Shown: positions 1 to 46,329, counted from the first letter of the stretch. The stretch: DNA of 64,000 nt from Candidatus Zixiibacteriota bacterium (GCA_024277855.1 JAJRUJ010000082.1:3537-67536); one strand, 5' to 3'. Numbers and translations: made by a program. Notes: a model not told the origin generated them from the letters alone.

Positions 1-554
1 AACGGACGGGGATCGCGCCAATTGAAACTGCGCGAGCCATAGGGACAGGCGGCCATACAATACCGGCAGCCGATACAGCGGTGCATATCCATCATCACGA
101 TTCCGTCCTCGCGTTTCCAGGTCGCCTTGGTCGGACAAACGCGGACGCAGGGCGGATTGTCGCAATGATTACAGAATACCGGCACCGACTGGTGTTTCAT
201 TTCCTCGTGCAGGTGTTCATTTTCCTGTTCCTGAAAGGCATGACCAAACGATTCTTTCCAGATCCATTTAACCTCGTCTTTGGGGTTGCCGAAATCCGGG
301 ACATTATGCTCCAGGTGGCAGGCCGCGATGCACTTGGTGCAACCATGCTCGGCCATACATTTGTGGATATCGATCACCATCGCCCAACGATGCGCGGTCA
401 ATGGTCCGGTCGGCTGCGTCGTCGGGGGCGGGATTGTCGCGGTAGAATCGACCGGGTCGACTCCTTCGGCAAAAACCTCGAAAGCAGGCTTACTGGCCAG
501 ACTAAGCGCGGTCAGCCCGGCGATCTTAAAAAACTTCCGGCGATCGACGCTCAT
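1..554 (-). CDS. dsrO: DsrO, periplasmic 4Fe-4S ferredoxin subunit of DsrMKJOP (partial; 3' end beyond window)
   Basis: Not in the ORF track because it has no stop in the window. Read by hand from ATG at 554 (overlapping the dsrJ TGA): MSVDRRKFFKIAGLTALSLAS... (twin-Arg Tat signal), then RWAMVIDIHKC. Lies directly after dsrJ. Confidence 0.9.
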   Translation of the reverse strand, partial: MSVDRRKFFKIAGLTALSLASKPAFEVFAEGVDPVDSTATIPPPTTQPTGPLTAHRWAMVIDIHKCMAEHGCTKCIAACHLEHNVPDFGNPKDEVKWIWKESFGHAFQEQENEHLHEEMKHQSVPVFCNHCDNPPCVRVCPTKATWKREDGIVMMDMHRCIGCRYCMAACPYGSRSFNWRDPRP

Positions 555-4750: not shown

Positions 4751-6472
4751 TTAGTTCACCGGCTGTGGTGGCACATATGTTGCCGGATCGTGCATCTCGA
4801 TATAGCCGCAAGGGCAGTTTTCCGCGCACTTGTCGCAACCCTTGCAAAATTCAAGTTTAAACTTATAACGCTGGCCCGGCAACAACGGTTTGATCACCGC
4901 CGAATCCTGACAATACGTCCAGCACTGTCCGCATTCAAAACAGGAACCGCAACTCATGCAGCGTTTCGCCTCGGCCAGCAACTGCTCCTCGGTCAAACCG
5001 GCGCTGACTTCCTTATCCAGCCCGGTAAGCCGCTCCTCGACCGGCAGGTTGGTCTTTTCGTTGCGCAACAGGTTCTCGTAATAGTTGAGCAGAATCTTGT
5101 CGTGTTTGATCACATGTTCCTTGTCCGGGTGGGACGGTTTTTCGCCGGTGAAATTCTCGTGGATCGTTTCGGCGGCACGACGGCCCTGGTACAGGGCAAT
5201 CACGACCAGTCCGAGTTCGAGATCGTCCCCGCCGGCATAGGTCTTGTCCGCGACCTGACCGCGGTCGTCGGTCTTGATCCAGTCGCGGCCTTCATGCAAA
5301 TGGTCCAGCCCCGTGAAATCGGGCTCCTGTGAAATCGCCGGGATAATTGTGGTCGCATCAATGGTAAATTCCGAGCCCTCGATCGGCACCGGCCGGCGGC
5401 GGCCGGATTCATCGGGTTCACCGAGTTCCATCCGCCGGCATTTCATCCCGACAGCGCGGTTACCCTCTTTGAGGATTTCCACCGGGGCGACCAGATATTC
5501 AATATTGACACCCTCTTCTTCGGCGCCAATGATGTCCTCCTCAATCGCGGGCATCTCATTGCGCGTGCGGCGATAGATTATCCACGAGTCGGCGCCGAGG
5601 CGTTTGGCCACGCGGGCGGCATCAAAAGCGGTGTCGCCGCCGCCGATGACGATGACTTTCTCGCCCAGCTCAACTGTCTCGCCGCGATTAACGGCATTGA
5701 GAAACTCGGTGCCGGTGTAGACATTTTCGGCGTCTTCACCGGGTACACGAAGGGCATACCCTTTATGCGCGCCGATCCCCACAAAGATTGCATCGTATTC
5801 TTTTTGTACATCTTCGTACGGGATGTCTTTGCCGACCGAGGTATTCGGTTTCAGTTCAACGCCGAGCTTGAGGATACGGTCGATTTCCTTGTCCAGGATA
5901 TCCTGCGGAAGTCGATAGTCGGGAATCCCATAGCGCAGCATTCCGCCGGGTTTGGGAAACGCCTCGAACATCGTCACCGGATACCCGCGCCGCGCGAGTT
6001 GATAGGCGCATGAAAGCCCTGCCGGCCCCGAACCGATCACGGCAATTTTTTGTTGCCGCCGTTCGTCACTGATTTTGGGCAGTTCGAGACCTTTTTCAAT
6101 AGCATAGTCACCGATGAACCGTTCGACATTATTGATGGCTACCGCCCCGTCTTTCTCCTTGCGATTACAATCGGATTCACAGGGATGCGGGCAAACCCGC
6201 CCGAGAACGGAAGGCAGCGGGTTGCGTTCGACAAAGAGTTTCCACGCCTCGACAAAGGCCTCGTCGTTCGACTTACCGTGTTTTTCGGCCAATTGAATAG
6301 TGGTCAGGATTTCGCGGACAACAGTCTCATTGGGGCACGCGGCATGGCAGGGCGCTGTTTTTTCGACATGGAACGGTCTGTTCGGGGACTGGTCGGTCGC
6401 TCCGCCCATCGCCGGACGTGAACGCAGCCTGCCCAGGCCGGCTTTTTTCTTTTTTTTCTTCTTGATCACCAT
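4751..6472 (-). CDS. dsrL: DsrL, NAD(P)H:Fe-S flavoprotein (DsrL-2-like, YRR motif)
   Basis: GltD-like core (CP.PCE..CNR, IGSGPAGL, GMLRYGIP.YRLP, IGGGDTA), IIYRRTR motif, and C-terminal ferredoxin (CMSCGSCFECGQC, CKGCDKCAENC). Lies inside the dsr cluster. Confidence 0.92.
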   Translation of the reverse strand: MVIKKKKKKKAGLGRLRSRPAMGGATDQSPNRPFHVEKTAPCHAACPNETVVREILTTIQLAEKHGKSNDEAFVEAWKLFVERNPLPSVLGRVCPHPCESDCNRKEKDGAVAINNVERFIGDYAIEKGLELPKISDERRQQKIAVIGSGPAGLSCAYQLARRGYPVTMFEAFPKPGGMLRYGIPDYRLPQDILDKEIDRILKLGVELKPNTSVGKDIPYEDVQKEYDAIFVGIGAHKGYALRVPGEDAENVYTGTEFLNAVNRGETVELGEKVIVIGGGDTAFDAARVAKRLGADSWIIYRRTRNEMPAIEEDIIGAEEEGVNIEYLVAPVEILKEGNRAVGMKCRRMELGEPDESGRRRPVPIEGSEFTIDATTIIPAISQEPDFTGLDHLHEGRDWIKTDDRGQVADKTYAGGDDLELGLVVIALYQGRRAAETIHENFTGEKPSHPDKEHVIKHDKILLNYYENLLRNEKTNLPVEERLTGLDKEVSAGLTEEQLLAEAKRCMSCGSCFECGQCWTYCQDSAVIKPLLPGQRYKFKLEFCKGCDKCAENCPCGYIEMHDPATYVPPQPVN

Positions 6473-6597
6473 GATGAACGTCCTTTTACCTGCTCAGCCC
6501 AGGCCCCATCCCGGCCAGCCTTGTCTAAAGGATAACTTTTTCTATTCCGGGGCCGCCTTGTACTCGTCACGAAACTCAGAGTCTCACCCGCGACATA

Positions 6598-8040
6598 TCA
6601 ACAATACGACGCGGTTGATATCGCCGTATTCCCCGATTCGGTACTCGATCCCCGTTCGGCGCAATAAACCCCGGCCAGCCGGACAAAGTTGGGTGCCCAT
6701 TCCGGTGTCCCCAGCGCATGAAGATGGAAATATGATGCCATCGTCCGCTGAACCACCAAGCCGTCGCGTCGATTAAACGACCCTCGCCCCAACTTCGCCG
6801 CACAGACGGTTGCTGAATTTTCCGCACCGTTCGCGATCCGCGTATAATGGAACTCGTGCGCGTTGATTGTTTTGCCGACAGGGAAATAAGGGTTTTCACG
6901 GTCAACGATCATCCGGCAATAGCCATGTCCCTGCGGCCGTTTTTCCAACACGAGTTCAACCGGGAAAACCCCGGCCATCGGGTAAACTATCTCGTCGACC
7001 TGCAACGACTTTGCCAGAAACACCAGTCCCCCACATTCGGCGTAGATCGGCATCCCCCGCTCAGCCGCAACGTGGACCGCGTCACGCAGTGCGGTATTAT
7101 CGGCCAACTGCCGGGCATGTGTTTCAGGAAAACCGCCGCCGATATAGAGTCCGTCAAGGTCGGCCGGGAGCGGATCATCATCCACCGCCGCAATCGGCAC
7201 CAGTTTCGCCCCGGCGTTATTGAGCGCTTCCAGATTCTCCGGATAATAAAACGTAAACGCCGCATCCCGGAAATATCCGATTCGCGCCACGGACGGGCGG
7301 TCGCTGGAGGCGTCAAACGACGGTTGTGCCCGATGCGGAAAAGGCCGCGAACCGGCCAATTCGATGATCCGGTTCACGTCGACATATTCATCGATGATTT
7401 CCGTCGCTCGATTTAACGCCTGCTCCGGATCGGGATGCTCCTCCGGCGTGACCAGTCCAAGATGCCGCCCCGGCAGAAGGGAGGGATCATCAAACCGCGG
7501 AATTGCCCCGACGACCGGCGGCCCGCCGGCCTGTTCCAACGATTCGGTGATTACCCGCTGGTGGCGTTTGCCGGCAACACCGTTGAGCACGACCCCGGCC
7601 ACGTTGACCCGGGGATCGAACGTGCAACAGCCCATGATCGCCGCCGCCGCGGTACGGGTGGCCTTGCGAACCTGATGAATCAGAATGATCGGAGCACCCA
7701 GCAAAGCGGCCAGTACGGCTGTCGAGTGAGTCCCCTGCGCATCCTGGCCGTCGTGCAACCCACGATTGCCCTCAATGACGGCAATGTCGGAGACAGCGCT
7801 ATTATTGACGAACGAACCGATAATCGTCGGCTCGTCCATCATGAATGTATCCAGGTTTCGCCCGGCCTGTCCGGCAACGCGTCCCAACCAGGCAGCATCG
7901 ATGAAGTCCGGGCCTTTCTTGAAGGCTGCGGTTTTCATCCCCCGCCGCGTCAGGACACCCAGCAACCCCAGGGACAGAATGGTCTTACCCGCGTCGCCGG
8001 ATGTGCCGGCGATCATGATGCGCGGGCATACCTCGCTCAT
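6598..8040 (-). CDS. dsrN: DsrN, siroheme amidase (cobyrinate a,c-diamide synthase family)
   Basis: GTSGDAGKT, FKKGPDFID, IEGNRGL, GGGFPE, YAECGG and HEFHY motifs. ATG at 8040 follows a GGAGG SD. Confidence 0.93.
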   Translation of the reverse strand: MSEVCPRIMIAGTSGDAGKTILSLGLLGVLTRRGMKTAAFKKGPDFIDAAWLGRVAGQAGRNLDTFMMDEPTIIGSFVNNSAVSDIAVIEGNRGLHDGQDAQGTHSTAVLAALLGAPIILIHQVRKATRTAAAAIMGCCTFDPRVNVAGVVLNGVAGKRHQRVITESLEQAGGPPVVGAIPRFDDPSLLPGRHLGLVTPEEHPDPEQALNRATEIIDEYVDVNRIIELAGSRPFPHRAQPSFDASSDRPSVARIGYFRDAAFTFYYPENLEALNNAGAKLVPIAAVDDDPLPADLDGLYIGGGFPETHARQLADNTALRDAVHVAAERGMPIYAECGGLVFLAKSLQVDEIVYPMAGVFPVELVLEKRPQGHGYCRMIVDRENPYFPVGKTINAHEFHYTRIANGAENSATVCAAKLGRGSFNRRDGLVVQRTMASYFHLHALGTPEWAPNFVRLAGVYCAERGSSTESGNTAISTASYC

Positions 8041-14846: not shown

Positions 14847-15448
14847 AGCTTATACAATACTACTTTACCGTATTGGGCAAGAGCAGCCGACGATATTGTT
14901 GTCAAAAACGATGTTGCTTCCGGGTAAAACACCCGGTTGACCCGGTCAATATGTCGGATCGTTTTGGTCGATGATGTCCCCACCCTGCCATTGGGCAATC
15001 TCTATTATTTTTATCTTAATTCGGTAATTTACCTTACAGAATCAAGCAATTCGAAAGACCGAACTGTGACGTTTTGACATTCCGGCGATTTGTGGCCAAA
15101 AATACCGGCACTTTCAGGTCCGGATAGGTCGTCTGATAGCGACGTTCACCCGGCATAGCCCACTCGGATTTGTGTTTTTATTTCACAAGTTTGTGGCAAT
15201 CTGTGCTTCTGATAGAGTGCTATTTGCCTCAAAAACCGGGAATATGAGCCGCCTTAACTGGATCATCACCCGGGAATTAAATCTTTATAGACTATTGACT
15301 TGCATTGGAGATCGCCGAATAACCACTCGACAACAGTAATGTAATCATCTGAATAATAACAACTTACCCCAAAACCCCCTGTCGACCCATCTTCTCCGAC
15401 GGCAAAATTATAAAAAATGGTCGCATATGGCAGGATTTGACAGATTTG

Positions 15449-15475
15449 TTAGCACTCGACTCATATGAGTGCTAA
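15449..15475 (+). promoter_or_regulatory. CIRCE element (HrcA operator)
   Basis: Exact TTAGCACTC-N9-GAGTGCTAA upstream of groES; a TTGACA lies at 15437-15442. Confidence 0.97.
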
Positions 15476-15586
15476 CAAAATTGATTTTTATCTGTATATT
15501 AGTGTTGAGAGGGTCAACGAGTCAAATGACTCATTTGCGAATTAAACGTAAAGTTACCATACACATAACGCAACAAGGAGAGTAAC

Positions 15587-15877
15587 ATGAGTATTCGTCC
15601 ACTGGCTGATCGCGTTGTTCTTAAGCCGCTGGATAGCGAGGCAGAAGTCAAGCGTGGCGGTATCATTATTCCCGACACAGCCAAAGAAAAACCGCAAGAG
15701 GGCGAGATTATTGAAGTCGGCCCGGGTCGCCGCGGTGATGACTGCAAGCTGGTCGAGATGGAAGTCAAGAAGGGCGACAAGGTGCTCTACGGCAAGTATG
15801 CCGGCACCGAGTTCCGCGTCGGTGATGATGAGATGATGATCCTGCGTGAGTCCGATATCCTCGCAATCATCAGCTAG
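15587..15877 (+). CDS. groES: Co-chaperonin GroES
   Basis: [38 protein letters not shown] motifs. Confidence 0.99.
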
Positions 15878-17557
<1,680 letters not shown>

Positions 17558-19876: not shown

Positions 19877-22468
19877 TTACTTGATCACGACGATTTTACC
19901 GACTTGATTGCCCCAGTCGGATTCGATCGAGTAGAGATAGATGCCCGACGTAATTGCCTGGGTGTTGCGCGTAATCAAATCCCAGGCCGTGTGGGAGGGG
20001 GTGTCCGAAAAGCGGCTCTCCGGGTGATGTAACTCGCGGATCAGGTCGCCGTCTAAAGAGAAGATTTTAATCGTCGCTTTTGGCGGCAGGTTGACAAAGT
20101 GAATCCGTCGCACGCGTTCCTTGAAACCCTCATGATTGGGGTCTTCATATCCCCGGCCGCGATAATCGGCGTCGATTTTATACGGATTGGTATAGACCGA
20201 AACGTTCAACCGATTTTCCTGAACATATTCCGGTGAATACGACGGATAGGCCAATTGCAGGTTTGATTGTGGTGGTGATTCGAGCGGGCCGAGATCGCCC
20301 GCGGCATATCCCTGGTCAAACGCGGTCACGGCAAAATAGTACGGCTGGCTCGGCAGTAAGTTGTCGATGACGCACTCGTAATGGCCGAACAACTGCCAGC
20401 TCTGGCTGTCGTCATCCCAGAGCGAATCGGTGCGGACATATTGAATCGGATTGTCGACGACTCGTCCGTATTCGACATACTCATTGCCCCGGTTGCCGCC
20501 ATGCGGCACGAAATAAAACTGCTCGCCGGAATCGTCGGTATACACCGAATTCCGGTCGGGATACTCTTCCGGGATAAAATCGGCGCCGAGCATGCTCTGC
20601 AGCTGTTCCAGCGTGAACGGTGGCTCGTTGCAAACCCAGGGCGAGGGCCGGGCGGTGGGGATAAAACGATACCGGTCATAGTTGACCACATCCCATGAGC
20701 AGACCAGGTTCAGCGAGTTGACATCGGAACCGATCCCACTGTAGACGCTGTAACCTTCGAAATCCCGCGTTTGAGAGAAGGGATCAAAAAACGGTTCGCA
20801 GACCTTCCCGCTCCAGGTAATCCGCACGGTATATGGCTCGGTAGATATTTTGATTTCGGGTGACGGCGGCGGCGGGGGCGTCCGGAGGTCGGGGATGCCA
20901 TCGCCAACATAATAAAACGAATCGCAGACTTCATAATTATCAAAACAGACATCATAACAAAATACTGAATCGCCATCCTCGAAACATTTTTCGAAGCATA
21001 CATTATCTTCCCGCCGGCAATTGACGCCGTATTTCCTCCCCGAGCAGCCGTCGCCATCGGTATCGATCCCTGGATTGTCGTAGACCCGTGAGGCCCATTG
21101 GAGATTCCTGGTCAAGTCTGAGAAATCGACATTCTTGAACCACTCGTTCGGGTTTTTGGAGAGGTTTTTTCGATTGCCGGCATCGCGATGAAAAAGTTCA
21201 CCCCCGGCAAAGGCAACGGTAAACGGTATCGTCTCGCCGGGCTCCAGTTCAAGCGGACCGATAGAATAGAGTATACATACGTCGTGTCCATCGGCAATAT
21301 TATATACTTCGCCCTCCTTTATATCCCGTATACCGAACGGCGGAATCCAGCCGCTTTCGGTCGAATCGTCGTTCGCCAAATATTGGTCGTAATCGATTTC
21401 ACGGTTCGAAAGATAACGGTACCGTTGCGCATCTCCATAAGGACCGCCCAATTTCCCGATAATAGATCGATCACCCGGCAGTTTTTGTGGACCCCAAAAA
21501 TACGACCACCAATTGAAGGAGTAATTCGGTACGGGGGTTGCTGAAAAGCACTGATCCTGGCCCAATCCGAGGACCCGAACTCCTATGACTGAGCGGACGC
21601 TCTGCTCCCAGAAACCCTGATGATAAAGATCGCCGTCGTTGTCGGCCCACCAGGCGGCCATGATTGTATCCGCAAAGTCACCGCCGGTAGAAACGGGCGC
21701 GGTACGCATGAAGCCGACAAGATTCTCCTTACCTGCCAGCGCCTTTGTGCTCATCCGGTTCAATACTCTGGGGTATATCCATAACCCAAGCCACAAGTTG
21801 GAGATAGGGATATTTCGTAAGTTAGTCAGGGAATACTGAACAATAATGACGTCTTCCAGGTAATCATAACTCCAAACATAAGAATGCTGCCTGATGCCGA
21901 TTCCGATTGGTTTATGCGGACGGAGGGTATAATAATCCGGCAAAACGTATTCCTGGTCCATTATTGTATCGGCATATTGGCAAATCAGTTCCTCGGTGGC
22001 AATTGCTGCAGGGTCGAAATGTGGGCTATTCGGTTCGTTGCTCAGCTCCAGGAAATCCATATCTTCTGCTCCCGGGAGCCACTCCCATTGAGTGACCAGG
22101 GTATCCGCGGTGGAGCCAGATCCGAAGACTGCCCCCGCCCAAAGTTCACCCCAGTTTAGATAGTCGCAATTACTCCCGGCGGGATATTGCATGCCGGGAG
22201 CGGGGAGCCCGGTCTCGGGGTCAACTAATGAACTATAAACATTGCCAAATTCACCCCAATTGGTCATCGTCATCTGGAAGTTTCCGGCACGATGAATGCG
22301 ATATTGGGTATTGGGAGCGTCGCTGACCCCATTCGTCTGAGCCAGCTTGATAAACCGTCGATTGGATGAATCGGGGATGCTATTCTGCCCGGTGGCAGAT
22401 ACTGCAAGACAGGATATTAGAGATAATGCGATTACGACACGCAAACCGCCGAAGCCAAACCACCCCAT
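19877..22468 (-). CDS. Large secreted protein of unknown function with T9SS-like C-terminal domain
   Basis: Signal peptide after a GGGGAG SD, Pro-run linker, FnIII-like segment (YYFAVTAFD), and C-terminus VYTNPY...IHFVNLP...IKIFSLDGDLIREL...WDL...SGIYLY...GKIVVIK. Confidence 0.7.
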   Translation of the reverse strand: MGWFGFGGLRVVIALSLISCLAVSATGQNSIPDSSNRRFIKLAQTNGVSDAPNTQYRIHRAGNFQMTMTNWGEFGNVYSSLVDPETGLPAPGMQYPAGSNCDYLNWGELWAGAVFGSGSTADTLVTQWEWLPGAEDMDFLELSNEPNSPHFDPAAIATEELICQYADTIMDQEYVLPDYYTLRPHKPIGIGIRQHSYVWSYDYLEDVIIVQYSLTNLRNIPISNLWLGLWIYPRVLNRMSTKALAGKENLVGFMRTAPVSTGGDFADTIMAAWWADNDGDLYHQGFWEQSVRSVIGVRVLGLGQDQCFSATPVPNYSFNWWSYFWGPQKLPGDRSIIGKLGGPYGDAQRYRYLSNREIDYDQYLANDDSTESGWIPPFGIRDIKEGEVYNIADGHDVCILYSIGPLELEPGETIPFTVAFAGGELFHRDAGNRKNLSKNPNEWFKNVDFSDLTRNLQWASRVYDNPGIDTDGDGCSGRKYGVNCRREDNVCFEKCFEDGDSVFCYDVCFDNYEVCDSFYYVGDGIPDLRTPPPPPSPEIKISTEPYTVRITWSGKVCEPFFDPFSQTRDFEGYSVYSGIGSDVNSLNLVCSWDVVNYDRYRFIPTARPSPWVCNEPPFTLEQLQSMLGADFIPEEYPDRNSVYTDDSGEQFYFVPHGGNRGNEYVEYGRVVDNPIQYVRTDSLWDDDSQSWQLFGHYECVIDNLLPSQPYYFAVTAFDQGYAAGDLGPLESPPQSNLQLAYPSYSPEYVQENRLNVSVYTNPYKIDADYRGRGYEDPNHEGFKERVRRIHFVNLPPKATIKIFSLDGDLIRELHHPESRFSDTPSHTAWDLITRNTQAITSGIYLYSIESDWGNQVGKIVVIK

Positions 22469-22558
22469 CACACTCCCCCTAAAAGCCATTGCTATCTTTT
22501 GCTAAACATATGATCTTAAGTAATAATATCATCCGCCGCAACCTGGAGTTTTCATTCT

Positions 22559-22801
22559 TTATTCACAATTGCAATTTGCATCGCAGACTGTTTCTCTTTG
22601 CTTACAGGTCCTCCCATCCCAATCTCCCCATTTCCAGCCGTCTGGATTCCCTCCACAAAGAGTATAACAATTGATAATTTTGCAACAGTTTGTATCGCTT
22701 GCTACGGCTTTCTCCAAACCATTGGTGGTCAAAAACGAGAAGCAAAGCGCGAGAGTGAAGAGAAAGAGTAGACAATAACTGCGAAGCGACTTTCGGTTCA
22801 T
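22559..22801 (-). CDS. Small secreted Cys-rich peptide (8 Cys in mature part)
   Basis: GGGAGG SD 7-8 nt before ATG, basic N-terminus plus hydrophobic core and AVA cleavage site, mature region SDTNCCKIINCYTLC...TCKQRETVCDANCNCE. Confidence 0.75.
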   Translation of the reverse strand: MNRKSLRSYCLLFLFTLALCFSFLTTNGLEKAVASDTNCCKIINCYTLCGGNPDGWKWGDWDGRTCKQRETVCDANCNCE

Positions 22802-22822
22802 ACAGTACCTCCCTTCCGATTT

Positions 22823-23386
22823 TCATGTCCCGGTTGCGGCATTTATCTTTATGATCCGTTCGAATATTTGCGGCGATATCTTGCCGCTGATTATATCGTG
22901 GATTTTATTTTCACGATCGATAATTATTGAAAATGGATAGACGCTGAGGCCCAATTCGCGTCCATATTCTTCGTCCTGATCAATCAGGATCAGCGCAGAG
23001 ATTTTGTGTGAACGGAGAAATTCTCCTACTACTTCAGGGTCTTCAGGAGTGATAAATACGAAATATCGGTATGCGGAACTGTCTTTGCAGGCCTCACCGA
23101 ATGCATAGAAATCATCAACACACAAATCGCAGGTAGTGTAGAAAAATGAGATGAGGGTCCTTTCTGACACGATTTCAGAGAGCCAAACGTCATCGCCATG
23201 CAGATCGGTGAGCCGATGGTCGGGCAGGATTCCTCCGACGGAGATAGTATTCATCTCCGCCAGGAGAGATGCCGTCTGTTCGCGCTGTTGCTCTGCTTTC
23301 TCGCCGGCAACATAGTATTTTGCTCCCAGTTTGCCGAGAAGTAGCGCCATTACGGCGACGCCGGTAATGATGACGGTAACAATCAT
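22823..23386 (-). CDS. Membrane-anchored redoxin (TlpA/AhpC-TSA-like thiol-disulfide protein)
   Basis: N-terminal TM helix, HRLTDLHGDDV.LS, FFYTTCDLC (CxxC), and YPFSIIIDRENKI cis-Pro loop. Confidence 0.8.
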   Translation of the reverse strand: MIVTVIITGVAVMALLLGKLGAKYYVAGEKAEQQREQTASLLAEMNTISVGGILPDHRLTDLHGDDVWLSEIVSERTLISFFYTTCDLCVDDFYAFGEACKDSSAYRYFVFITPEDPEVVGEFLRSHKISALILIDQDEEYGRELGLSVYPFSIIIDRENKIHDIISGKISPQIFERIIKINAATGT

Positions 23387-23774
23387 CGCACATATCGGTC
23401 AATTTAAGCGTGCGGCCGGAAATCGTAAAAATTTGCGGGGCCAATTGTCCCTCATATATGATCACATCCACCGAATCGGCGGACCAGGCGGATAATTCGC
23501 GACCGATTGTGTACGCCTTTCGCGATTCCAACACACCATTCCGATAGATTTCCAGCACACCATTACCGCAAATTCGCAACGTCCTGGTGTACCCTTCTGA
23601 TGCGGGCGTTCGTGTTCCTCCGGTAAATCCTCCGGACGAACTTTCCCATCTCCATTCTCCAATCAACGCCGGTTGAATCGGAGCAGTCGTCGACCCGCTC
23701 GATGAACATCCCACGACTATTCCGGCGACTAAAGAGAACCAGAGAAATAGTCTACACATCGTTATTGATTTCAC
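23190..23774 (-). CDS. Hypothetical lipoprotein (lipocalin-like beta fold); 3' end overlaps the redoxin gene
   Basis: Lipobox IVVGC, LIGEWRWESSSGGFTG, and LKLTDMCDDCYRHHY. The C-terminal roughly 55 aa look like read-through. Confidence 0.65.
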   Translation of the reverse strand: MKSITMCRLFLWFSLVAGIVVGCSSSGSTTAPIQPALIGEWRWESSSGGFTGGTRTPASEGYTRTLRICGNGVLEIYRNGVLESRKAYTIGRELSAWSADSVDVIIYEGQLAPQIFTISGRTLKLTDMCDDCYRHHYRRRRNGATSRQTGSKILCCRRESRATARTDGISPGGDEYYLRRRNPARPSAHRSAWR

Positions 23775-24044: not shown

Positions 24045-24079
24045 TAATAGTGAAGTTAAGCTATACCGTACGGTGTAGG

Positions 24080-24550
24080 ATGATGACTTGGGAAAAAAAT
24101 CACAAAACTGGCCCCAACAACAACCCGGAATATCATGAGGCGGTCATCTCCATCGGGACCGCCGCCGAGAAAGTCGGGATATCCGTCTCGGCCCTGCGCA
24201 AATATGAAAGCGAAGGACTGCTGATCTTCCAGAGGACGAAAGGCGGGCGGCGGCTTCTCTCACAGGCCGATATTCGCCGAATTGACATCATCCGTGGCCT
24301 GATCAACCGACTGGGATTGAATTTCGAGGGGATCCGGCGGTTACTGGCCATCCTTCCCTGTTGGAAAATGAAACCGTGTACCGAGGAAGAACGCGACGCC
24401 TGTCCGGCTTATCTGGACAGTGTTCAACCCTGCTGGATGTTGAAAGATTCGACGTGCGCCAAAGTCGGGATCGATTGTCGGGAATGTAATGTATATCGTT
24501 ACGGCGCTTATTTTACTGAAGATATCAAGACCCTGTTGCATTCTGGATAG
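24080..24550 (+). CDS. MerR/HspR-type HTH regulator with Cys-rich (two CW motif) C-terminal domain
   Basis: ISIGTAAEKVGISVSALRKYESEGLL...GGRRLLS HTH, followed by PCW..KPC...CPAY...PCW...C......C..CNVY. Confidence 0.85.
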   Translation: MMTWEKNHKTGPNNNPEYHEAVISIGTAAEKVGISVSALRKYESEGLLIFQRTKGGRRLLSQADIRRIDIIRGLINRLGLNFEGIRRLLAILPCWKMKPCTEEERDACPAYLDSVQPCWMLKDSTCAKVGIDCRECNVYRYGAYFTEDIKTLLHSG

Positions 24551-24641
24551 CATTGCGGCCGGGTTGAAAAAAACGGGGAACTGAAATGGCATTCCGGAAT
24601 TATCTGGTAAACTCCGCCGGAATGTCGGCGGAGGAAAACCT

Positions 24642-25544
24642 ATGACCTACCTGCACATCCTGACCTATGCATCCGTGGCGGTCTTTGTTGTGGCCATCGT
24701 GGTCCGGGCCGTGCGCCTGGCCACCACACCGGTCCATCTGCGCTGGGAACTCTACCCGGTCGCGCATGAGAAAGACCGGGTGCGTTATGGCGGTTCATAT
24801 TTCGAGGAACTTGATTGGTGGACCAAGAAACGGGAAAAGTCGATGCTCGGCGAGTTGAAGGTGATGATTCCGGAAATCCTGCTGCAGAAAGGACTCTGGG
24901 AGAATAACCGTTCGATGTGGCTGTGGTCTCTTTTGATGCACAACGGCCTTTACCTGGTCATCGGCTTTGCCGGTCTGGCAATTATCGGCGCCCTGGCCGG
25001 CACCGCGACCGAGTTCGGCTCGTTGATCAAACAGGTCGCCTACATTGTCGGCCTGATCGGCTATATCATCGGGGTAATCGGAACCGCCGGGTTGTTTGTG
25101 CTGCGAATCGGCAGCTACCGGCTGCGCAGTTTCTCACCGCCGGTCGCCTATTTTAACCTGCTTTTCCTGCTGGCACTCTTTGCCACCGGTACATATTTAT
25201 TCGCGGTCGGCAATGAACCGGTTGACGCCATCGCCGGTTTTGCCCACGAGCTAATTACCTTCTCACCGAATGCGGTACCGGCCGGGATCGGCGGCCTGCA
25301 TCTGACCATCGCCATGTTGTTTGTCTTGTATTTGCCGTTCACCCACATGACCCATTTTTTTACCAAGTATTTCACCTACCACGCGGTGCGCTGGAATGAC
25401 GAACCGAATCTGCCCGGCTCCAAGTTGGAAAAAGCCATCCAACGACAACTCGGTTACCCGGTCAGTTGGGCCGCGCCGCACCTGAAAGCCGACGGAAAAA
25501 AGAACTGGGCCGACATCGCCCTGGACACGGGGGAGGACAAGTAA
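24642..25544 (+). CDS. Second NarI/DsrM-like membrane cytochrome b
   Basis: P.HLRWELYPVAHE, LMHNGLY, and YLPFTHMTHFFTKYFTYH motifs; multiple TM helices. Confidence 0.85.
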   Translation: MTYLHILTYASVAVFVVAIVVRAVRLATTPVHLRWELYPVAHEKDRVRYGGSYFEELDWWTKKREKSMLGELKVMIPEILLQKGLWENNRSMWLWSLLMHNGLYLVIGFAGLAIIGALAGTATEFGSLIKQVAYIVGLIGYIIGVIGTAGLFVLRIGSYRLRSFSPPVAYFNLLFLLALFATGTYLFAVGNEPVDAIAGFAHELITFSPNAVPAGIGGLHLTIAMLFVLYLPFTHMTHFFTKYFTYHAVRWNDEPNLPGSKLEKAIQRQLGYPVSWAAPHLKADGKKNWADIALDTGEDK

Positions 25545-27155
25545 ATGCCCAAGCACGTCAAAATTACCGACATCGGCAAGAACCCCGGTCAACAACTGAC
25601 CCACGTCAATCTGGCCGATTTGCTGCCCCTGCCCCCACCCTATGACAAGCTCGACGAACAGCCGAAGTGGGCCAAGATCAAACCCGAGCACAAAGAAAAA
25701 TTAGAGTGCACCCTTGACGACACCATCGCCGTCGGGTTTCCCCGGCCAAAGACCAAAGAAGAGGAGCAAGAGCTGGTCGACAAGTTCCTTTCCGGTCTGG
25801 AAAAACTCCTGACCAGGGAAAACAACTGGACCTTCCTGCAGCCGCTGCTGCTCACCTTGGAACATTGCGCCAAGTGTCAAACCTGCAACGACGCCTGCCC
25901 GATTTATACTGCTTCGGGTAAAAACGATGTCTACCGCCCGACCTATCGCTCGGAGGTCTGGCGACGGATTGTCGGCAAGTATCTCAAACCCGGCGGCAAA
26001 TTCTTCGGGAAATTCACCAGTGGCGATATCGAGTTGAACTGGACGACAGTCTCGCGGTTAATGGAATTGTCCTACCGTTGCACCCTCTGCCGCCGCTGCG
26101 CGCAGACTTGCCCGATCGGTGTCGACAATGGCCTGATCACCCATGAATTGCGTAAGGTCTTCTCGCAGGAAATGGGCATTGCGCCCAGGGAGATTCACGA
26201 GAAGGGGTCGGTCCAGCAGTTGACGGTTGGCTCCTCTACCGGGATGACTCCGCTGGTGGTCAAAGACAATATTGAGTTTATCGACGAGGACATGTACGAC
26301 AGGACGGGGATCAAATATGAGACCCCGTGGGACAAAAAGGGCGCCGACATTTTGTTGATCCACAACGCCGGCGAAATCCTCGCCTGGCCGGAAAACCCCG
26401 GCGCATTTGCGATTATCCTGGAGGCGGCCGGGATGTCCTGGACGATGTCGTCGGAAAAAGTCGGGTATGACGGAATCAATTACGGCCTCTGGTACGACGA
26501 TTTCCAACTGGCCCGGGTGGCGCTTAAGCATGCCGAGATCGCCAAAAAACTCGGCGTGAAAAAAATCGTGATGGGCGAATGCGGTCACGCCCACAAGGCC
26601 ATCCAGGTAATTGCCGACCGCGTCTACCAGGGTGAATATAATATCCCCCGTGAATCGGCGATGACCCTGTTGGAAGACATTGTTTTCTCGGGAAAGATCA
26701 AATTCGATCCCGCGAAAAACGATTTCCCGGTTACCCTGCATGACCCGTGCAACATGGTCCGCCTGATGGGCATTGTCGAGCCACAACGGCGAATCCTGCG
26801 TTACCTTTGTCCGCAATTCCGTGAAATGACTCCGCACGGCGTCGAAAACTACTGTTGCGGCGGCGGGAGCGGTTTTGCGATCATGTCCGGACACAATTTC
26901 CAGGACTGGCGGCTGTCGGTCTCCGGCCGGATGAAACTCAAACAGGTGTTGGAGGCCTTCGACGATTATCCCGGGCCGGAACAGAAAAAATACCTGTGTG
27001 CCCCCTGTTCGAACTGTAAGGGTCAGCTCCGCGATTTATTTGGTTATTATAATGTCTGGGAGAAATCGCGAATCCAGTATGGCGGGCTGGTCGAGTTGAT
27101 TGTCAACGCGATGGTTGATGTCAAAGGGGAATTCATCGAGTGGGAATTCCATTAG
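25545..27155 (+). CDS. Second DsrK/HdrD-like Fe-S CCG-domain oxidoreductase
   Basis: CAKCQTCNDACP, CTLCRRCAQTCP, GECGH, HDPCN, CCGGGSG and CAPCSNC motifs. Confidence 0.88.
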   Translation: MPKHVKITDIGKNPGQQLTHVNLADLLPLPPPYDKLDEQPKWAKIKPEHKEKLECTLDDTIAVGFPRPKTKEEEQELVDKFLSGLEKLLTRENNWTFLQPLLLTLEHCAKCQTCNDACPIYTASGKNDVYRPTYRSEVWRRIVGKYLKPGGKFFGKFTSGDIELNWTTVSRLMELSYRCTLCRRCAQTCPIGVDNGLITHELRKVFSQEMGIAPREIHEKGSVQQLTVGSSTGMTPLVVKDNIEFIDEDMYDRTGIKYETPWDKKGADILLIHNAGEILAWPENPGAFAIILEAAGMSWTMSSEKVGYDGINYGLWYDDFQLARVALKHAEIAKKLGVKKIVMGECGHAHKAIQVIADRVYQGEYNIPRESAMTLLEDIVFSGKIKFDPAKNDFPVTLHDPCNMVRLMGIVEPQRRILRYLCPQFREMTPHGVENYCCGGGSGFAIMSGHNFQDWRLSVSGRMKLKQVLEAFDDYPGPEQKKYLCAPCSNCKGQLRDLFGYYNVWEKSRIQYGGLVELIVNAMVDVKGEFIEWEFH

Positions 27156-41650: not shown

Positions 41651-42247
41651 ATGAAATATCGACTAATTATTGGTCTGCTGGCAGTTGTGGTTCAGACGAT
41701 GCTGGTTGCACCCGGCCTGGCGCAGGAACCGTCCGGTGGAGACTCGACAAAAGTCGCCCAATCGCCGGTGATGCTCAACCGGGCGGATGATACCTCGGTT
41801 ACCACGCCGATGCTCCTGCAACCAGCAAAACCCGATACCGGGTTCTGGTCCCGTCCCACCGGTGCTCTGTTTAAATCGGTGCTGGTCCCGGGTTGGGGAC
41901 AGCTTGCCAACGGGAAATACCAGAAAGCCGCGATCTATGCCGGGCTGGAAACATATTTCGCCCTCCGGGCGGCGCATTTTTTCAGAAAAACACGTGAGCA
42001 TTTCGACCGGTTCCGCGAAACCGATGAGCGAAGTGATTATTTCGCCTACGACAACGCCAAAAACAACCGGAACAAATTCTATTGGTACCTCGCGGGGACG
42101 ATCTTCATCAGTATGTGGGACGCCTATACCGACGCCCACCTCAAACCGTTTGAGGAAACCGAGGGCGATGATGATTATTGGGGACTCAGCGACCGCCCCG
42201 AAATCTCACCACCCGGGGTATCACTTGCTTTAACTTTCAAATATTGA
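41651..42247 (+). CDS. DUF5683-like exported/membrane protein
   Basis: Signal peptide, P..AL.KS.L.PGWGQL.NGKY.KA, and W...DAY.DAHL..F. Confidence 0.7.
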   Translation: MKYRLIIGLLAVVVQTMLVAPGLAQEPSGGDSTKVAQSPVMLNRADDTSVTTPMLLQPAKPDTGFWSRPTGALFKSVLVPGWGQLANGKYQKAAIYAGLETYFALRAAHFFRKTREHFDRFRETDERSDYFAYDNAKNNRNKFYWYLAGTIFISMWDAYTDAHLKPFEETEGDDDYWGLSDRPEISPPGVSLALTFKY

Positions 42248-42294
42248 TCAATCTCCTGTAACCGCGTGCAAATTACGACAATAACACCAATAAA

Positions 42295-42326
42295 AAGCCC
42301 CGACAATTGCCGGGGCTTCGATCAAC
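42295..42326. terminator. Probable bidirectional terminator between convergent genes
   Basis: AAAAGCCCCG-ACAATTGC-CGGGGCTT hairpin with an A-run on the left. Confidence 0.55.
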
Positions 42327-42346
42327 TTATATTCAATCAAAAAGCG

Positions 42347-42718
42347 TCAACCCTCCACATCACCGCCGCCGGACTTAACTTTCTCAATGTGAACATCAAA
42401 AGTGGTATTGGCCGTGATATTCACCTTTTCGGAATAATGCTGATACTCGTCTTTGGTCACCGAGATTGTCTGTAATCCGGTGGGCAGACCGGTCAATTCG
42501 TAATCGCCCTCACCATCGGTGGTAGTAGAGTGTCCGGCAACACTGACAATCGCACCGGGAATCGGCAGGACGGTGCCCTCATGGAAGACCCGGCCGGACA
42601 AAACCCCGTTCATTGGACTTGTCGGTGAATCACTCCCACAACCAACCAGAGAAAATGCGAAAATAATTGCGATAACCGTCAGAACGAAAATTCTGGAAAG
42701 ACTTTTGTTGAAGCTCAT
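42347..42718 (-). CDS. Lipoprotein with carboxypeptidase regulatory-like (CarboxypepD_reg) domain
   Basis: Lipobox SLVGC, and LSGRV...PIPGAIVSV...TTDGEGDYEL..LP.G...ISVTK..Y. Confidence 0.8.
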   Translation of the reverse strand: MSFNKSLSRIFVLTVIAIIFAFSLVGCGSDSPTSPMNGVLSGRVFHEGTVLPIPGAIVSVAGHSTTTDGEGDYELTGLPTGLQTISVTKDEYQHYSEKVNITANTTFDVHIEKVKSGGGDVEG

Positions 42719-43095
42719 TACATCCCCTCCCCACACCAAGGGACCCGATTGGTTCATCAAGTTAAAATAAAAATACGGGCGACGGTGTCAAGTATTTGTC
42801 AGCCATAAATCTATTGTGCATGACAAAATACAGATCACCCGGACTCGGCAAGTTAAATCCTGATTTTTCGATATGTACGGGTTAGCTGCACCCCACTGAC
42901 TGCAATTCCCCCCATGAATGCACCAATATGTTATCGTATGACGACGCTCTGACGCCATCTGGCTACGTTAAATCCGTGCTAATAGCAGACAGAGAGGGAC
43001 TTATCGAGTTCGATAAACATGTCGGCACAAATTTATATTAATGAACAAAACAAACACGACCGACATTTGTTTTCGCTCCGCGCAAAGCAAAGAAA

Positions 43096-43128
43096 AAACA
43101 AAAAAGCCCCCCGCAATGCGGGGGGCTT
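43096..43128 (-). terminator. Intrinsic terminator of the 43153-43764 gene
   Basis: Minus strand AAGCCCCCCGC-ATT-GCGGGGGGCTT followed by a T-run. Confidence 0.8.
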
Positions 43129-43152
43129 CCAGGATTGTCTGAATTCAGCAGA

Positions 43153-43764
43153 TTACTTCCGGCGGGTGTAGACTATTTCCATGTTCATGAAATCTTCGCC
43201 ATCGGGGTTGACATAGTACATCTGCATTTTTTGCGTGTCATCATCAACGGCGGTGATGACCGTGCGCACCGGCATGTCTTTGGTACCGGACATCGGGTCG
43301 TCCATGGTGCCATGATAGGTGATCACTTTCCCGGATTTGTCGGCGGTTCCCCGGCTGATCATCATTCCGGTACTCATGTCATCAAACCAGACATCGATAT
43401 ATTCCTGGCGAAATTTATCGTAGGCGGTAATGCCCATTCCCTTGAATGGTGCATCGAATGCGGTGCCGTCGTATTCGTGGACCAGATAACGGCCGCCCAA
43501 AATGGTTTTGAAATTTGAGACACCGGTCGAGGTTTGCGGTGGCGCGGCAGGGTTCATCCAGAATTTCGCCTCGGCGTCCCAGACACCGACCATTTTTTCA
43601 AATTGTTTGTGCTGTTCAACCGGCGCGGCCATCTCGGTCCACATGGCCATCATCGCCGCTTTATCGGGTTTGCCCGAATCCGGCGGTCCGGCAATCGCAG
43701 AGCCGACGGCAATAAAGAACAAGCCGACAACCATAACACCGCACGCAAGAGTTTTGCACTTCAT
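43153..43764 (-). CDS. DUF1579 family exported protein
   Basis: Signal peptide, P.EQHKQF..MVGVW...K.WM.P, ILGGRYL, F.GMG..AYD, and W.DDMSTGM motifs. Confidence 0.85.
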   Translation of the reverse strand: MKCKTLACGVMVVGLFFIAVGSAIAGPPDSGKPDKAAMMAMWTEMAAPVEQHKQFEKMVGVWDAEAKFWMNPAAPPQTSTGVSNFKTILGGRYLVHEYDGTAFDAPFKGMGITAYDKFRQEYIDVWFDDMSTGMMISRGTADKSGKVITYHGTMDDPMSGTKDMPVRTVITAVDDDTQKMQMYYVNPDGEDFMNMEIVYTRRK

Positions 43765-44007
43765 GTACATCCTCCCCTGACTGTTTGCCCCCACATGGTT
43801 GAGTGTTCTGTATACGCTGCCGGTAAAGAAAGGTTGGCCGATTGTGGCCGGGTATCACTTCCTGCGGAAACCATCAAGTTCTTTTCTTTCATTACAATAC
43901 GGCGACGAACATCATCCCGGGACAATAAAACAGGGTTAAGGGCGGCAAAACCGGCTTGAGATGCCGATATAGATAACAAAATAATTTCACTTTCAAAGGA
44001 GTCGCGC

Positions 44008-44467: not shown

Positions 44468-45661
44468 TCACCGCGCCGGTGCCGCCGTGCGCGCTTTGGC
44501 CCGTTCGTTGATTTCGGTGACTCCTTCGATCGCCGTGTCGATATGCTCGATAGTATTAAACGGCCCAATGGCAAAACGTACACTGCCATGAAGTGGGAGC
44601 GTGCCGATCTGTTCGTGGACCAGCGGAGCACAGTGCAGGCCGGTGCGCGTGGCGATATTGAAATCGACATCGAGCATGATTCCGACATCCGCGGCTTCGA
44701 ATCCCTCGACATTCATCGACACCGTCGAGAGATGATTGTCCAGACTGTCGCAACAATAGGTGACGACGCCGTCGATTTGTCTGAATCCGTCGACCAGCCG
44801 CCGGGTAAGCATCATTTCCTGTTCGTGAATTTTCTCGACTCCGCCGAACTTCTCCATCCAGCCCTGACCCGCCCAGAGTGAGGCAATTCCGACCATGTTC
44901 GGCGTGCCGTATTCCATGCGGAACGGGTATTCATCGAGGTGATATGGAAAAGCGGAGCGCACCCCGGTGCCTCCGCTTCGTGTATGCCGGATCTCCAGAT
45001 GTTTCCGAATACAGAGACCGCCGATCCCGGTCGAACCCATCAATGATTTGTGGCCGGTGAAGGCAAGCGCATCAATGTTCATCGCCTTCATGTCAATCGG
45101 GACCATCCCGGCGGTCTGGGAAGCATCGACGGCAAAGGTGATCCCCAGTTCCCGGCAAATTCGCCCAATTGCCGCCACCGGCTGGATCGTGCCGAGGACG
45201 TTCGAACCATGGTTAACGATGACCAGCTTGGTATTGGGTCTTACGGCCTGGCGGATTTCCTCGGGATCGACAAAACCCCGGACATCGAACGGGACAAAAG
45301 TTGCCTCGACCCCATGGTCGCGGACCAGGTGATTGATCGGCCGGATGACCGAATTATGTTCGATTTTGGTCGTAATTACATGGTCGCCGGATTCCAGCAG
45401 GCCGTTAATCAGCAAATTAAGCGCATCGGTGGCGTTATAACCAAAGCATAATCGCTCGGGGGTGTCCTCATCGCCGCCGAAGAAAGCCGTCAGACGTTTG
45501 CGGAGGTCTTCGACGATGTTCCCCGCTTCAATCGCCTTGTCGAATCCACTCCGACCGGGATTAACTCCGCACTGGCGATAAAAATCGACCATGAAAGCAT
45601 AGACTTTGTCCGGCTTCGGCCAGGACGTTGCGGCATTGTCCAGATAGATCAAGTTCTCCAC
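44468..45661 (-). CDS. Class V PLP aminotransferase, cysteine desulfurase family
   Basis: IYLDNAATSWPKP, NPGRSG, EHNSV, DASQTAG, FTGHKSL, GTPN and RTGLHCAP motifs. GTG start after GGAG. Confidence 0.92.
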   Translation of the reverse strand: MENLIYLDNAATSWPKPDKVYAFMVDFYRQCGVNPGRSGFDKAIEAGNIVEDLRKRLTAFFGGDEDTPERLCFGYNATDALNLLINGLLESGDHVITTKIEHNSVIRPINHLVRDHGVEATFVPFDVRGFVDPEEIRQAVRPNTKLVIVNHGSNVLGTIQPVAAIGRICRELGITFAVDASQTAGMVPIDMKAMNIDALAFTGHKSLMGSTGIGGLCIRKHLEIRHTRSGGTGVRSAFPYHLDEYPFRMEYGTPNMVGIASLWAGQGWMEKFGGVEKIHEQEMMLTRRLVDGFRQIDGVVTYCCDSLDNHLSTVSMNVEGFEAADVGIMLDVDFNIATRTGLHCAPLVHEQIGTLPLHGSVRFAIGPFNTIEHIDTAIEGVTEINERAKARTAAPAR

Positions 45662-45859
45662 ATCAACTCCCCGAGTCGCTGCATCCGTTGGTTGTATGTT
45701 GTTTGTGTTCTCCAAGATAGCACGAAACCCCATATCCGGCAACCATGAAGACCCTATGAGATGACACAAAGTTGGCCGGTTCGACCTGCTTGATGGAATT
45801 TGACAACCCCAAACCGCTCTCGGGGAAATTACCTGACAGATTGCCGGGCATAAAAATAA

Positions 45860-45911: not shown

Positions 45912-46250
45912 TTATTGCGTTTTTTTCTTCCCTTTCTCTACGGTTGTCTGCTTAACAGCAGCATTGTCCGATTTGCACGACTTGGTCTCGGCCTTGCAGG
46001 CGGCATTGCCCTTGCAGTCAGCTTTGTTTTCGCAGGCTTTTTCGCATTTGGACGGACAGTTTGCGTCACATTTGCCGTCGCACTTTTTGTCACAATCGGC
46101 CGGTTTGCAATCCTGCCTATTGGCCATCTTGCACTCGGCTTTACCCGAGCTAAGCGGGCAGGCGTTACCAACGCTCGCCACGGAGGCGGTCACTGCGAGG
46201 GCAACCAGCACTACGACGGCAACGCGCCAGAGAGTATACTTCGGACTCAT
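45912..46250 (-). CDS. Small exported Cys/Lys-rich (metallothionein-like) protein
   Basis: AGGAG SD, signal peptide, and 12 Cys in the mature part including six at i+4 spacing (CDKKCDGKCDANCPSKCEKAC). Confidence 0.7.
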   Translation of the reverse strand: MSPKYTLWRVAVVVLVALAVTASVASVGNACPLSSGKAECKMANRQDCKPADCDKKCDGKCDANCPSKCEKACENKADCKGNAACKAETKSCKSDNAAVKQTTVEKGKKKTQ

Positions 46251-46329
46251 TGACGGATCTCCTGTTTGAGTTGATGAGTTGATATCCCGACCGGATGACG
46301 TCATCCGGCCTGTTCACAGGAGTTTCGTC

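Follow-up and report, generated by a model that had tools for sequence, protein, structure and literature searches.

An exported eight-cysteine peptide family encoded beside a putative dedicated redoxin in Candidatus Zixiibacteriota and unrelated metagenomic contigs

Peptides encoded with their own thiol oxidoreductase

Eukaryotes have many disulfide-rich miniproteins, which are of pharmacological value, and few have been described in bacteria. Here, we analyze a stretch of 64,000 nucleotides from Candidatus Zixiibacteriota bacterium (GCA_024277855.1 JAJRUJ010000082.1:3537-67536; hereafter, the window), in which the gene of a small exported peptide with eight cysteines follows the gene of a redoxin and precedes that of a secreted protein of 870 amino acids (aa), which we named LP. 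By analogy, the closest known systems seem to be the clusters of bacteroidetocin, pediocin, and sublancin, each of which encodes a peptide together with its own thiol oxidoreductase. In the bacteroidetocin clusters of Bacteroidetes (class IIf), the thiol oxidoreductase encoded beside the peptide is needed for toxin activity, a need that the authors attribute to Bacteroides being without a general disulfide-forming machinery (PMC6671954). In these clusters, a double-glycine leader of 15 aa is removed by an ATP-binding cassette (ABC) transporter with a C39 peptidase; a protein with five transmembrane (TM) segments is also present, and the toxin is hydrophobic or cationic, with 42 aa and four cysteines (PMC6671954). 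Comparable cases in Firmicutes are PedC of pediocin PA-1, which has been described as a putative thiol-disulfide oxidoreductase, and the Bdb-type oxidoreductases of sublancin and other glycocins (PMC4919988, PMC8620827, PMC6405829).

Like the bacteroidetocin clusters, the locus in the window encodes a small exported cysteine peptide beside an apparently dedicated thiol oxidoreductase, an arrangement that we found in five of five loci. However, when the systems are compared by description, the peptides studied here have a Sec signal with an AxA motif and no double-glycine (GG) motif (5/5), eight cysteines, and an acidic mature part; there is no gene for a transporter or a TM protein, and the pair is linked to a large protein that is putatively of the type IX secretion system (T9SS) type. 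Thioredoxin-fold proteins encoded in peptide operons, such as PedC and the Bdb-type proteins of sublancin and glycocins, have been proposed to ensure correct disulfide pairing. The pediocin and sublancin systems differ from our locus in that their hosts are monoderm, their peptides have a GG leader or are glycosylated and contain 2-4 cysteines, and their clusters include transporter and immunity genes.

From general background, a comparison can also be drawn with AprI/Inh, a small periplasmic inhibitor with a single disulfide and no private redoxin, which is encoded beside the secreted protease AprA. As in AprI/AprA, a small Sec-exported protein adjoins a large protein that leaves the cell, in our case putatively, by a dedicated secretion system. 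In contrast, the peptide has no sequence relationship with AprI and the activity of LP is not assigned. The peptides are also unlike sactipeptides and ranthipeptides/SCIFF, since they have a signal peptide rather than a leader and no radical SAM maturase gene lies beside any pair. Literature searches returned no description of a redoxin-peptide-LP cassette, which thus appears to be undescribed, as the initial annotation of the window, made from the sequence alone, had suspected.

The redoxin-peptide pair in five loci

The features of the window on which the analysis rests are listed below, all of them on the minus strand.

22559-22801 (-): precursor gene of the eight-cysteine miniprotein, 80 aa, supported by the open reading frame (ORF) and its translation, one homologue, and a five-member profile
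22700-22801 (-): signal peptide, codons 1-34, Sec-type, with a basic n-region preceding the hydrophobic core and with AVA as the cleavage motif
22562-22699 (-): mature part, 46 aa, with eight cysteines
22559-22561 (-): stop codon of the peptide gene
22807-22817 (-): Shine-Dalgarno (SD) sequence of the peptide gene, GGAAGGGAGGT, five nt upstream of the ATG, within the 21 bp that follow the stop codon of the redoxin gene
22823-23386 (-): redoxin gene, a TlpA/ResA-like thiol-disulfide oxidoreductase of 187 aa, supported by Pfam, NCBIfam, and a five-member profile
23336-23386 (-): N-terminal hydrophobic anchor of the redoxin, aa 1-17
23120-23131 (-): CDLC motif of the redoxin, aa 86-89
22934-22936 (-): conserved cis-Pro of the redoxin, P151
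22490-22558 (-): spacer of 69 nt between the peptide and LP genes, without a terminator-like site (folding z-score +0.27)
19877-22489 (-): LP gene, 870 aa, secreted, with a signal peptide, 69 bp downstream of the peptide gene

The precursor consists of the signal peptide MNRKSLRSYCLLFLFTLALCFSFLTTNGLEKAVA and the mature part SDTNCCKIINCYTLCGGNPDGWKWGDWDGRTCKQRETVCDANCNCE, in which the cysteines are spaced exactly as CC-x4-C-x3-C-x16-C-x6-C-x3-C-x-C and a GWKWGDWDG loop is present. The initial annotation had proposed an ORF of 80 aa that is preceded by a strong SD and encodes a signal peptide plus a mature part of about 46 aa with eight cysteines, and every one of these details was confirmed, as was the distance of 21 bp, which is exact when counted from the redoxin stop to the peptide start. 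The region is also AT-richer, as had been remarked: the GC content of 22559-23386 is 0.461 versus 0.545 for the window, among the bottom 1.4% of equal-sized windows, and GC at third codon positions is 0.44 in the peptide gene and 0.51 in the redoxin gene, versus 0.66-0.72 in the GroEL, SOD, and HdrD-like genes. Among the 449 small ORFs of the window, this one is alone in having a signal-peptide-like N-terminus followed by at least eight cysteines, and thirty shuffles of the sequence gave no such ORF.

An exhaustive phmmer search of the peptide against 1.84 billion representative proteins returned a single true homologue, P0003 (77 aa, 47% identity over a full-length match, 8/8 cysteines kept), encoded at a locus that we call L001. 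It was found in a microbial-mat run and in the metagenome-assembled genome (MAG) of an 'uncultured Ignavibacteria', the only genome match, which bears a homologous trio. Ignavibacteria and Bacteroidetes belong to the same broad Fibrobacteres-Chlorobi-Bacteroidetes (FCB) lineage. All other phmmer matches were large repeat proteins matched solely at a recurring W-x-W-x-F-G-D-G motif, which we take to be a PKD-repeat motif and which resembles the GWKWGDWDG loop; they were rejected as spurious. Word-indexed homology searches returned nothing for the peptide and only itself for the redoxin, a profile built from the two peptides retrieved no further members, and two DNA runs with words in common with the window do not cover the pair.

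Three more members were reached through LP. Its alignment was used to scan metagenomes, giving 15 homologous loci, in which redoxin homologues were sought by tblastn and ORF scans. In L006, L010, and L015, a small ORF begins 46-72 bp after the redoxin; it has a strong GGAGG-type SD, eight cysteines, and a signal peptide of the Sec type that ends in AxA or a similar motif. A peptide-like match in L009 was discarded as spurious, being contained in a radical SAM gene of the opposite strand. The family thus comprises the peptides of the window, L001, L006, L010, and L015, which are five unrelated metagenome contigs. The peptides of the last three are as follows.

L015: ...SWPCCYFDCAPGCTQGRGLQFHEQCLRESGHWCYLACECP
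L010: ...DICCISCAPSCEQFYDGHYLNGICTRVTSGTCYYPLLCRCP
L006: ...ILQICCYIPATPQCTHGHGHKDDPGDPCQCQGIDPICEMACPQCGG

The peptides are only 21-46% identical across the five loci, where the signal peptide and the eight-cysteine scaffold are conserved and the GGAGG-type SD is equally strong ahead of every member. Four of them fit the framework CC-x2-4-C-x3-C-x11-16-C-x6-7-C-x3-5-C-x-C, with one cysteine relocated in L006, and in the five-member alignment the loops between the fixed cysteines are hypervariable. Pairwise similarity is weak (window-P0003 1e-13, L015-L010 1e-7, L015-L006 1e-4, P0003-L015 0.03). However, when leave-one-out hidden Markov models were searched against 2739 ORFs, each member was the top non-training match (E 3e-6 to 7e-14), and we hence consider the five peptides as one family. 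The mature parts contain about 17% cysteine and 1-6 aromatic residues, and their net charge ranges from 0 to -4 in all five, i.e., they are neutral to anionic. The peptides of L010 and L015 were called as genes by the Joint Genome Institute (JGI), both as unnamed singletons. A strain variant of the L001 gene has about 92% identity to it; nine differences occur within the first 40 codons, five of them synonymous and four replacing one hydrophobic residue by another in the signal peptide.

The initial annotation had called the peptide defensin- or knottin-like. The family does share with eukaryotic defensins, knottins, conotoxins, and EGF-like modules a length of 40-50 aa, a signal peptide, a fixed cysteine framework, and hypervariable loops. 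In contrast with these miniproteins, the peptides are acidic and the CC-C-C-C-C-C-C framework has no significant match: searches of Pfam, NCBIfam, PADLOC, and PDB with the peptide family found none (the best PDB match is EGF, E 0.94), so this assignment finds no support. The NCBIfam search gave no SCIFF match and none to peptides made by ribosomes and then modified post-translationally (RiPPs), and no Rfam element was found in the region.

Could the ORF of the window be a chance open frame, intergenic and untranslated? Its exact product is absent from a collection of 15 billion proteins that does include the redoxin of the same contig (75.8 kb), so the peptide of the window seems to be present only as an uncalled ORF, apparently skipped by gene callers. 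Yet five members with an SD, a signal peptide, and eight cysteines, two of them called by JGI, the empty shuffles, and the synonymous or conservative changes of the strain variant make chance scarcely credible, and the conservation effectively refutes it. The sequence comparisons instead indicate that the 80-aa ORF, proposed from the outset as a genuine gene, is real and the first of a new, small family of which five members are known, apparently a very rare one, as a direct search of 1.84 billion representatives retrieved a single further member.

The redoxin of the window matches Redoxin PF08534 (37.6 bits, cut-off 26.6) and AhpC-TSA PF00578 (37.6 bits, cut-off 26), with an E-value of 2e-9. 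Its best NCBIfam match is ResA (5e-9), with 36 bits versus a cut-off of 170, and it falls far under the other cut-offs (DsbE 14 versus 123 bits, StoA 16 versus 210). Since these scores are so much lower than the equivalog cut-offs, it belongs to a distinct subfamily. A profile of the five redoxins matches the PDB structures of ResA, Etrx1/2, StoA, DsbF, and TlpA at 1e-12 to 1e-3 (1e-8 to 1e-12 for ResA, TlpA-like, Etrx, and StoA structures), which gives the redoxin the fold of the extracytoplasmic thiol-disulfide oxidoreductases. In all five, a hydrophobic helix is present at the N-terminus along with a charged linker, and both the CxxC (C86, C89) and the cis-Pro (P151) are invariant; the CxxC dipeptides are DL, DA, PG, LS, and DA, and an acidic residue follows the motif in 4/5. 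The redoxins resemble TlpA, ResA, CcmG, and StoA in the N-terminal anchor, CxxC, and cis-Pro loop, and differ from them in the variable dipeptide and in their linkage to the gene of a small cysteine-rich peptide. No res, ccm, sco, or cox genes are found beside the redoxin in the neighbourhood in the window. In all five loci with a homologous redoxin, a small ORF with a signal peptide and eight cysteines starts 21-73 bp after it. The expected association of this redoxin family with cysteine-rich small ORFs is therefore borne out, and we encountered no redoxin homologue without such an ORF. In the L010 redoxin there is an in-frame TGA at codon 19 (L010:1033-1035, minus strand), directly after the membrane anchor; the frame beyond it is open and homologous, and the TGA may be a sequencing error, a pseudogene, or recoding.

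The large secreted protein LP and its linkage to the pair

As had been noticed at first, a large secreted protein is encoded downstream of the peptide gene: an 870-aa ORF with a signal peptide, 69 bp away. The initial annotation took it as a neighbour and missed its membership in the module, as the pair is linked to LP homologues in two deep clades and in two orientations. In LP, the signal peptide is followed by about 470 N-terminal residues of no known family, a DTDGDG...GDGIPD calcium-binding-like motif, a variable insert, a PPPPP linker, and a highly conserved C-terminus. The latter is a weak match to the T9SS sorting domain (PF18962/TIGR04183, 14.3 and 15.8 bits for cut-offs of 27 and 23; E 0.01-0.05). 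Matches to Por_Secre_tail/TIGR04183 are also weak in 6/10 LP homologues (best E 0.004), and apart from these tails, searches of PDB, Pfam, NCBIfam, and PADLOC with LP returned nothing.

At L001, the order redoxin-peptide-LP is the same as in the window, with a redoxin of 191 aa (CDAC, 32% identical) and an LP of 861 aa (47% identical). The pair is co-directional with LP in both loci and no terminator separates the peptide gene from LP, which implies read-through into LP. In L006, L010, and L015, a shared spacer of 110-280 bp separates the pair from a divergently oriented LP, and the peptide stop codon is directly followed by an intrinsic terminator in L010 and L015 and by a strong hairpin in L006. 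The co-directional and the divergent, terminated loci suggest that the redoxin and peptide genes form a self-contained bicistron, which occurs in two arrangements at the 5' end of LP genes. In the LP tree, the pair-bearing LPs are divided between two deep clades with about 33% identity to each other, and each clade also has LPs without the pair (L004/L005 in one, L008/L009/L011/L014 in the other); L012, L013, and L016 also lack it. The GC content of the pair is below that of LP and of the flanking sequence in every pair-bearing locus, and no further neighbouring gene is common to these loci. On these comparisons, the linkage between the pair and LP appears to be non-random. Taken together, we regard the reality of the gene, of the family, and of the linkage as highly probable.

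Adjacent LP paralogues, in tandem or divergent, are found in L004 (1-204 and 723-3344), L013 (60-1319 and 1578-4277), L015 (3-707 and 2039-3850), and L016 (483-3398, minus strand, and 4899-7508). LP genes being often adjacent paralogues, the organisms may carry several LPs, only one of them beside the pair. Three LP homologues that are mutually 88-89% identical share an in-frame TGA (L008:5961-5963, L009:5964-5966, L011:5823-5825) in the context ...LSYNWWYST*ELVEDFGPVG..., with a conserved CGGCCC-GGU-GGGCCG hairpin roughly 19 nt downstream. Other LPs vary at the aligned position, with Met in L014 and L015b, the closest ones, and Cys in none; the shared TGA could be selenocysteine, read-through, or a shared pseudogene.

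Proposed function and competing explanations

On balance, we lean towards the explanation that the peptide is an exported miniprotein, probably with four disulfides, which is matured by the dedicated redoxin and works with the putative surface protein LP. The precursor would be exported by Sec and cut after the AxA motif, as sequence features conserved in all five members suggest. The anchored redoxin would then act in the periplasm on the eight thiols, most likely forming or shuffling four intramolecular disulfides, in host organisms that may lack the general Dsb machinery. That the redoxin acts on the cysteines of the peptide is likely, given the gene linkage and the analogy with bacteroidetocin, pediocin, and sublancin. 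Finally, the folded acidic miniprotein would act with or on LP, as a partner, an inhibitor, or a co-secreted subunit, rather than as a free cationic antimicrobial. The linkage to LP conserved in two orientations points to such a partnership, which we regard as possible but somewhat short of probable. We rank an LP partner above a free antimicrobial because the mature peptides are neutral to acidic and, in a diderm, Sec alone would take them no further than the periplasm. A more specific scheme can be imagined, in which this is a module of anaerobic FCB-group bacteria: the private periplasmic redoxin would oxidatively fold a knottin-sized eight-cysteine miniprotein, which would dock on LP and reach the surface with it via type IX secretion, as a hitchhiking subunit, a ligand, or a latency inhibitor. 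This full scheme is speculative and doubtful; if true, it would be the first bacterial family of disulfide-rich miniproteins with its own folding catalyst outside the bacteriocin world.

Several observations weigh against a miniprotein folded by its redoxin and working with LP. The characterized anchored proteins TlpA, ResA, CcmG, and StoA are mostly reductants, and the fold includes both reductants, such as these four, and oxidants, such as mycobacterial DsbE/F and streptococcal SdbA, so that an oxidizing, isomerizing, or reducing role cannot be read from the redoxin sequence. Unlike TlpA, ResA, CcmG, and StoA, the redoxins studied here lack the Trp that usually precedes CxxC in the TlpA/ResA family. 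The numbers of Lys/Arg flanking the anchor on the N-terminal and C-terminal sides are 0/3, 2/7, 3/3, 2/5, and 2/2, i.e., 3/5 are richer on the C-terminal flank, and such counts do not seem to place the redoxin domain clearly outside the membrane. As to LP, three of the five pairs (L006, L010, and L015) were discovered through it and one (L001) through the peptide, so the apparent rule that the pair always occurs with LP is affected by ascertainment bias; the pair is absent within 5 kb in about 8 of the 13 assessable LP loci, and the cysteine content of LP is uncorrelated with the presence of the pair. Structure prediction was uninformative for both partners: the AlphaFold2 model of the peptide, from a two-sequence input, has a predicted local distance difference test score (pLDDT) of 56.5 and a predicted template modelling score of 0.29, which lends nothing to the defensin or knottin comparison either, and the single-sequence AlphaFold model of LP has a pLDDT of 30.

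These points leave room for other explanations. The peptide may be a free-standing bioactive molecule, bacteriocin/toxin or signal, stabilized by disulfides, folded by the redoxin, and released from the cell, with LP unrelated or merely co-regulated. Hypervariable loops between fixed cysteines are also seen in toxins and defensins, the low GC and patchy distribution of the pair are typical of accessory competition genes, and bacteroidetocins, pediocin, and glycocins are precedents for a peptide with a dedicated thiol oxidoreductase. However, none of the five loci has a GG leader, an ABC/C39 exporter, or an immunity or TM-protein gene, a Sec signal alone would bring the peptide to the periplasm of a diderm, an irrelevant LP would hardly account for a linkage that spans two clades and two orientations, and the neutral to anionic mature parts argue against a defensin-type antimicrobial in particular. 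We therefore find a free peptide unlikely, and the antimicrobial idea of the initial annotation is weakened by the charge of 0 to -4, which is atypical for peptides of the class II or bacteroidetocin type, the lack of a nearby exporter or immunity gene, and the expected arrest of a Sec-only peptide in the periplasm. The metal-binding alternative that it had also raised would make the product a periplasmic metallothionein- or metallochaperone-like peptide, whose eight thiolates, joined by His in some members, would serve as ligands of Cu, Zn, Fe, or another metal while the redoxin keeps the thiols reduced, as TlpA does for ScoI and CoxB. This would suit the mostly reducing character of the TlpA/ResA relatives, the CC, CxC, and CxxxC motifs, the THGHGHKDD loop of the L006 peptide, and the origin of related sequences in marine sediment, hydrothermal vent, and microbial mat metagenomes. 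Metallothioneins, though, are cytosolic, with about 30% Cys and few or no aromatics, whereas these peptides have a signal peptide and about 17% Cys and are rich in aromatics; the His residues are not conserved across the family, an even number of cysteines, strictly eight and at fixed distances, is the mark of a disulfide scaffold, and the unit has no metal transporter or regulator, the nearby MerR gene running in the opposite direction with DsrMK-like genes. On this evidence, metal binding seems rather improbable.

One could further suppose that the real client of the redoxin is something else, such as LP, and that the small protein is an unrelated co-located secreted protein, a redox relay, or a decoy. 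Many redoxins serve several clients, and the insert of LP is cysteine-rich in the clade of the window (6-8 Cys). But the pair is present at L006, L010, and L015, whose LPs contain a single Cys in the insert, whereas those of L004 and L005 have a cysteine-rich insert, with no pair within 5 kb in L005 and the sequence upstream of LP cut off in L004. Since the cysteines of LP do not track the pair, LP is unlikely to be the main client, and the idea of a redoxin serving its cysteine-rich insert was rejected. The order and spacing from redoxin to peptide, invariant in 5/5, and the terminated bicistron of L010 and L015 also speak against another client, which we consider very improbable.

If the redoxin does mature the peptide, the family itself would show one way in which an anaerobe may fold eight cysteines, namely by a private redoxin, and would bring a conserved, large, putative surface protein as a partner. 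The pair would offer a tractable two-gene system for the study of dedicated oxidative folding or thiol maintenance in organisms possibly devoid of DsbA and DsbB, a new cysteine scaffold with hypervariable loops, and a first functional handle on an uncharacterized family of large proteins, putatively of the T9SS type. Small ORFs beside orphan redoxins are also worth mining systematically.

Other genes of the window

Four consecutive ORFs lie on the minus strand in 19877-23774, encoding a lipoprotein-like protein, the redoxin, the peptide, and LP. The first one is described as follows.

23387-23774, with the frame open to 23190 (-): lipoprotein-like ORF with the lipobox IVVGC, directly upstream of the redoxin

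It may be the first gene of the operon. It has no match to a Pfam, NCBIfam, or PADLOC family, and no homologue was found in the other pair-bearing loci. Its frame overlaps the redoxin gene by 197 nt: the plausible domain ends in ...LKLTDMCDDCY, with a CxxC, and is followed by 197 nt of Arg-rich sequence across the redoxin start. Such run-on points to the loss of a stop codon, to a frameshift, or to a long overlap that is genuine.

Divergent from the peptide operon, the plus strand encodes in 24050-27155 a MerR-family regulator with an unusual C-terminal tail of eight cysteines, followed by a NarI-like membrane protein and then by a protein with Fer4 and CCG (HdrD/DsrK-like) domains. A second cysteine-rich small ORF is found at 45912-46304 on the minus strand; it encodes 130 aa with one hydrophobic segment and a Lys/Cys-rich repeat (CDKKCDGKCDANCPSKCEKACENKADC...), has no Pfam family, and lies directly upstream, on the same strand, of a class-V aminotransferase (cysteine-desulfurase-like, 44468-45769). 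Finally, further patches of low GC relative to the average of 0.545 occur at 42001-44000 (0.48-0.50) and at 15001-16000 (0.455), the latter upstream of a GroEL-like gene (15908-17557).

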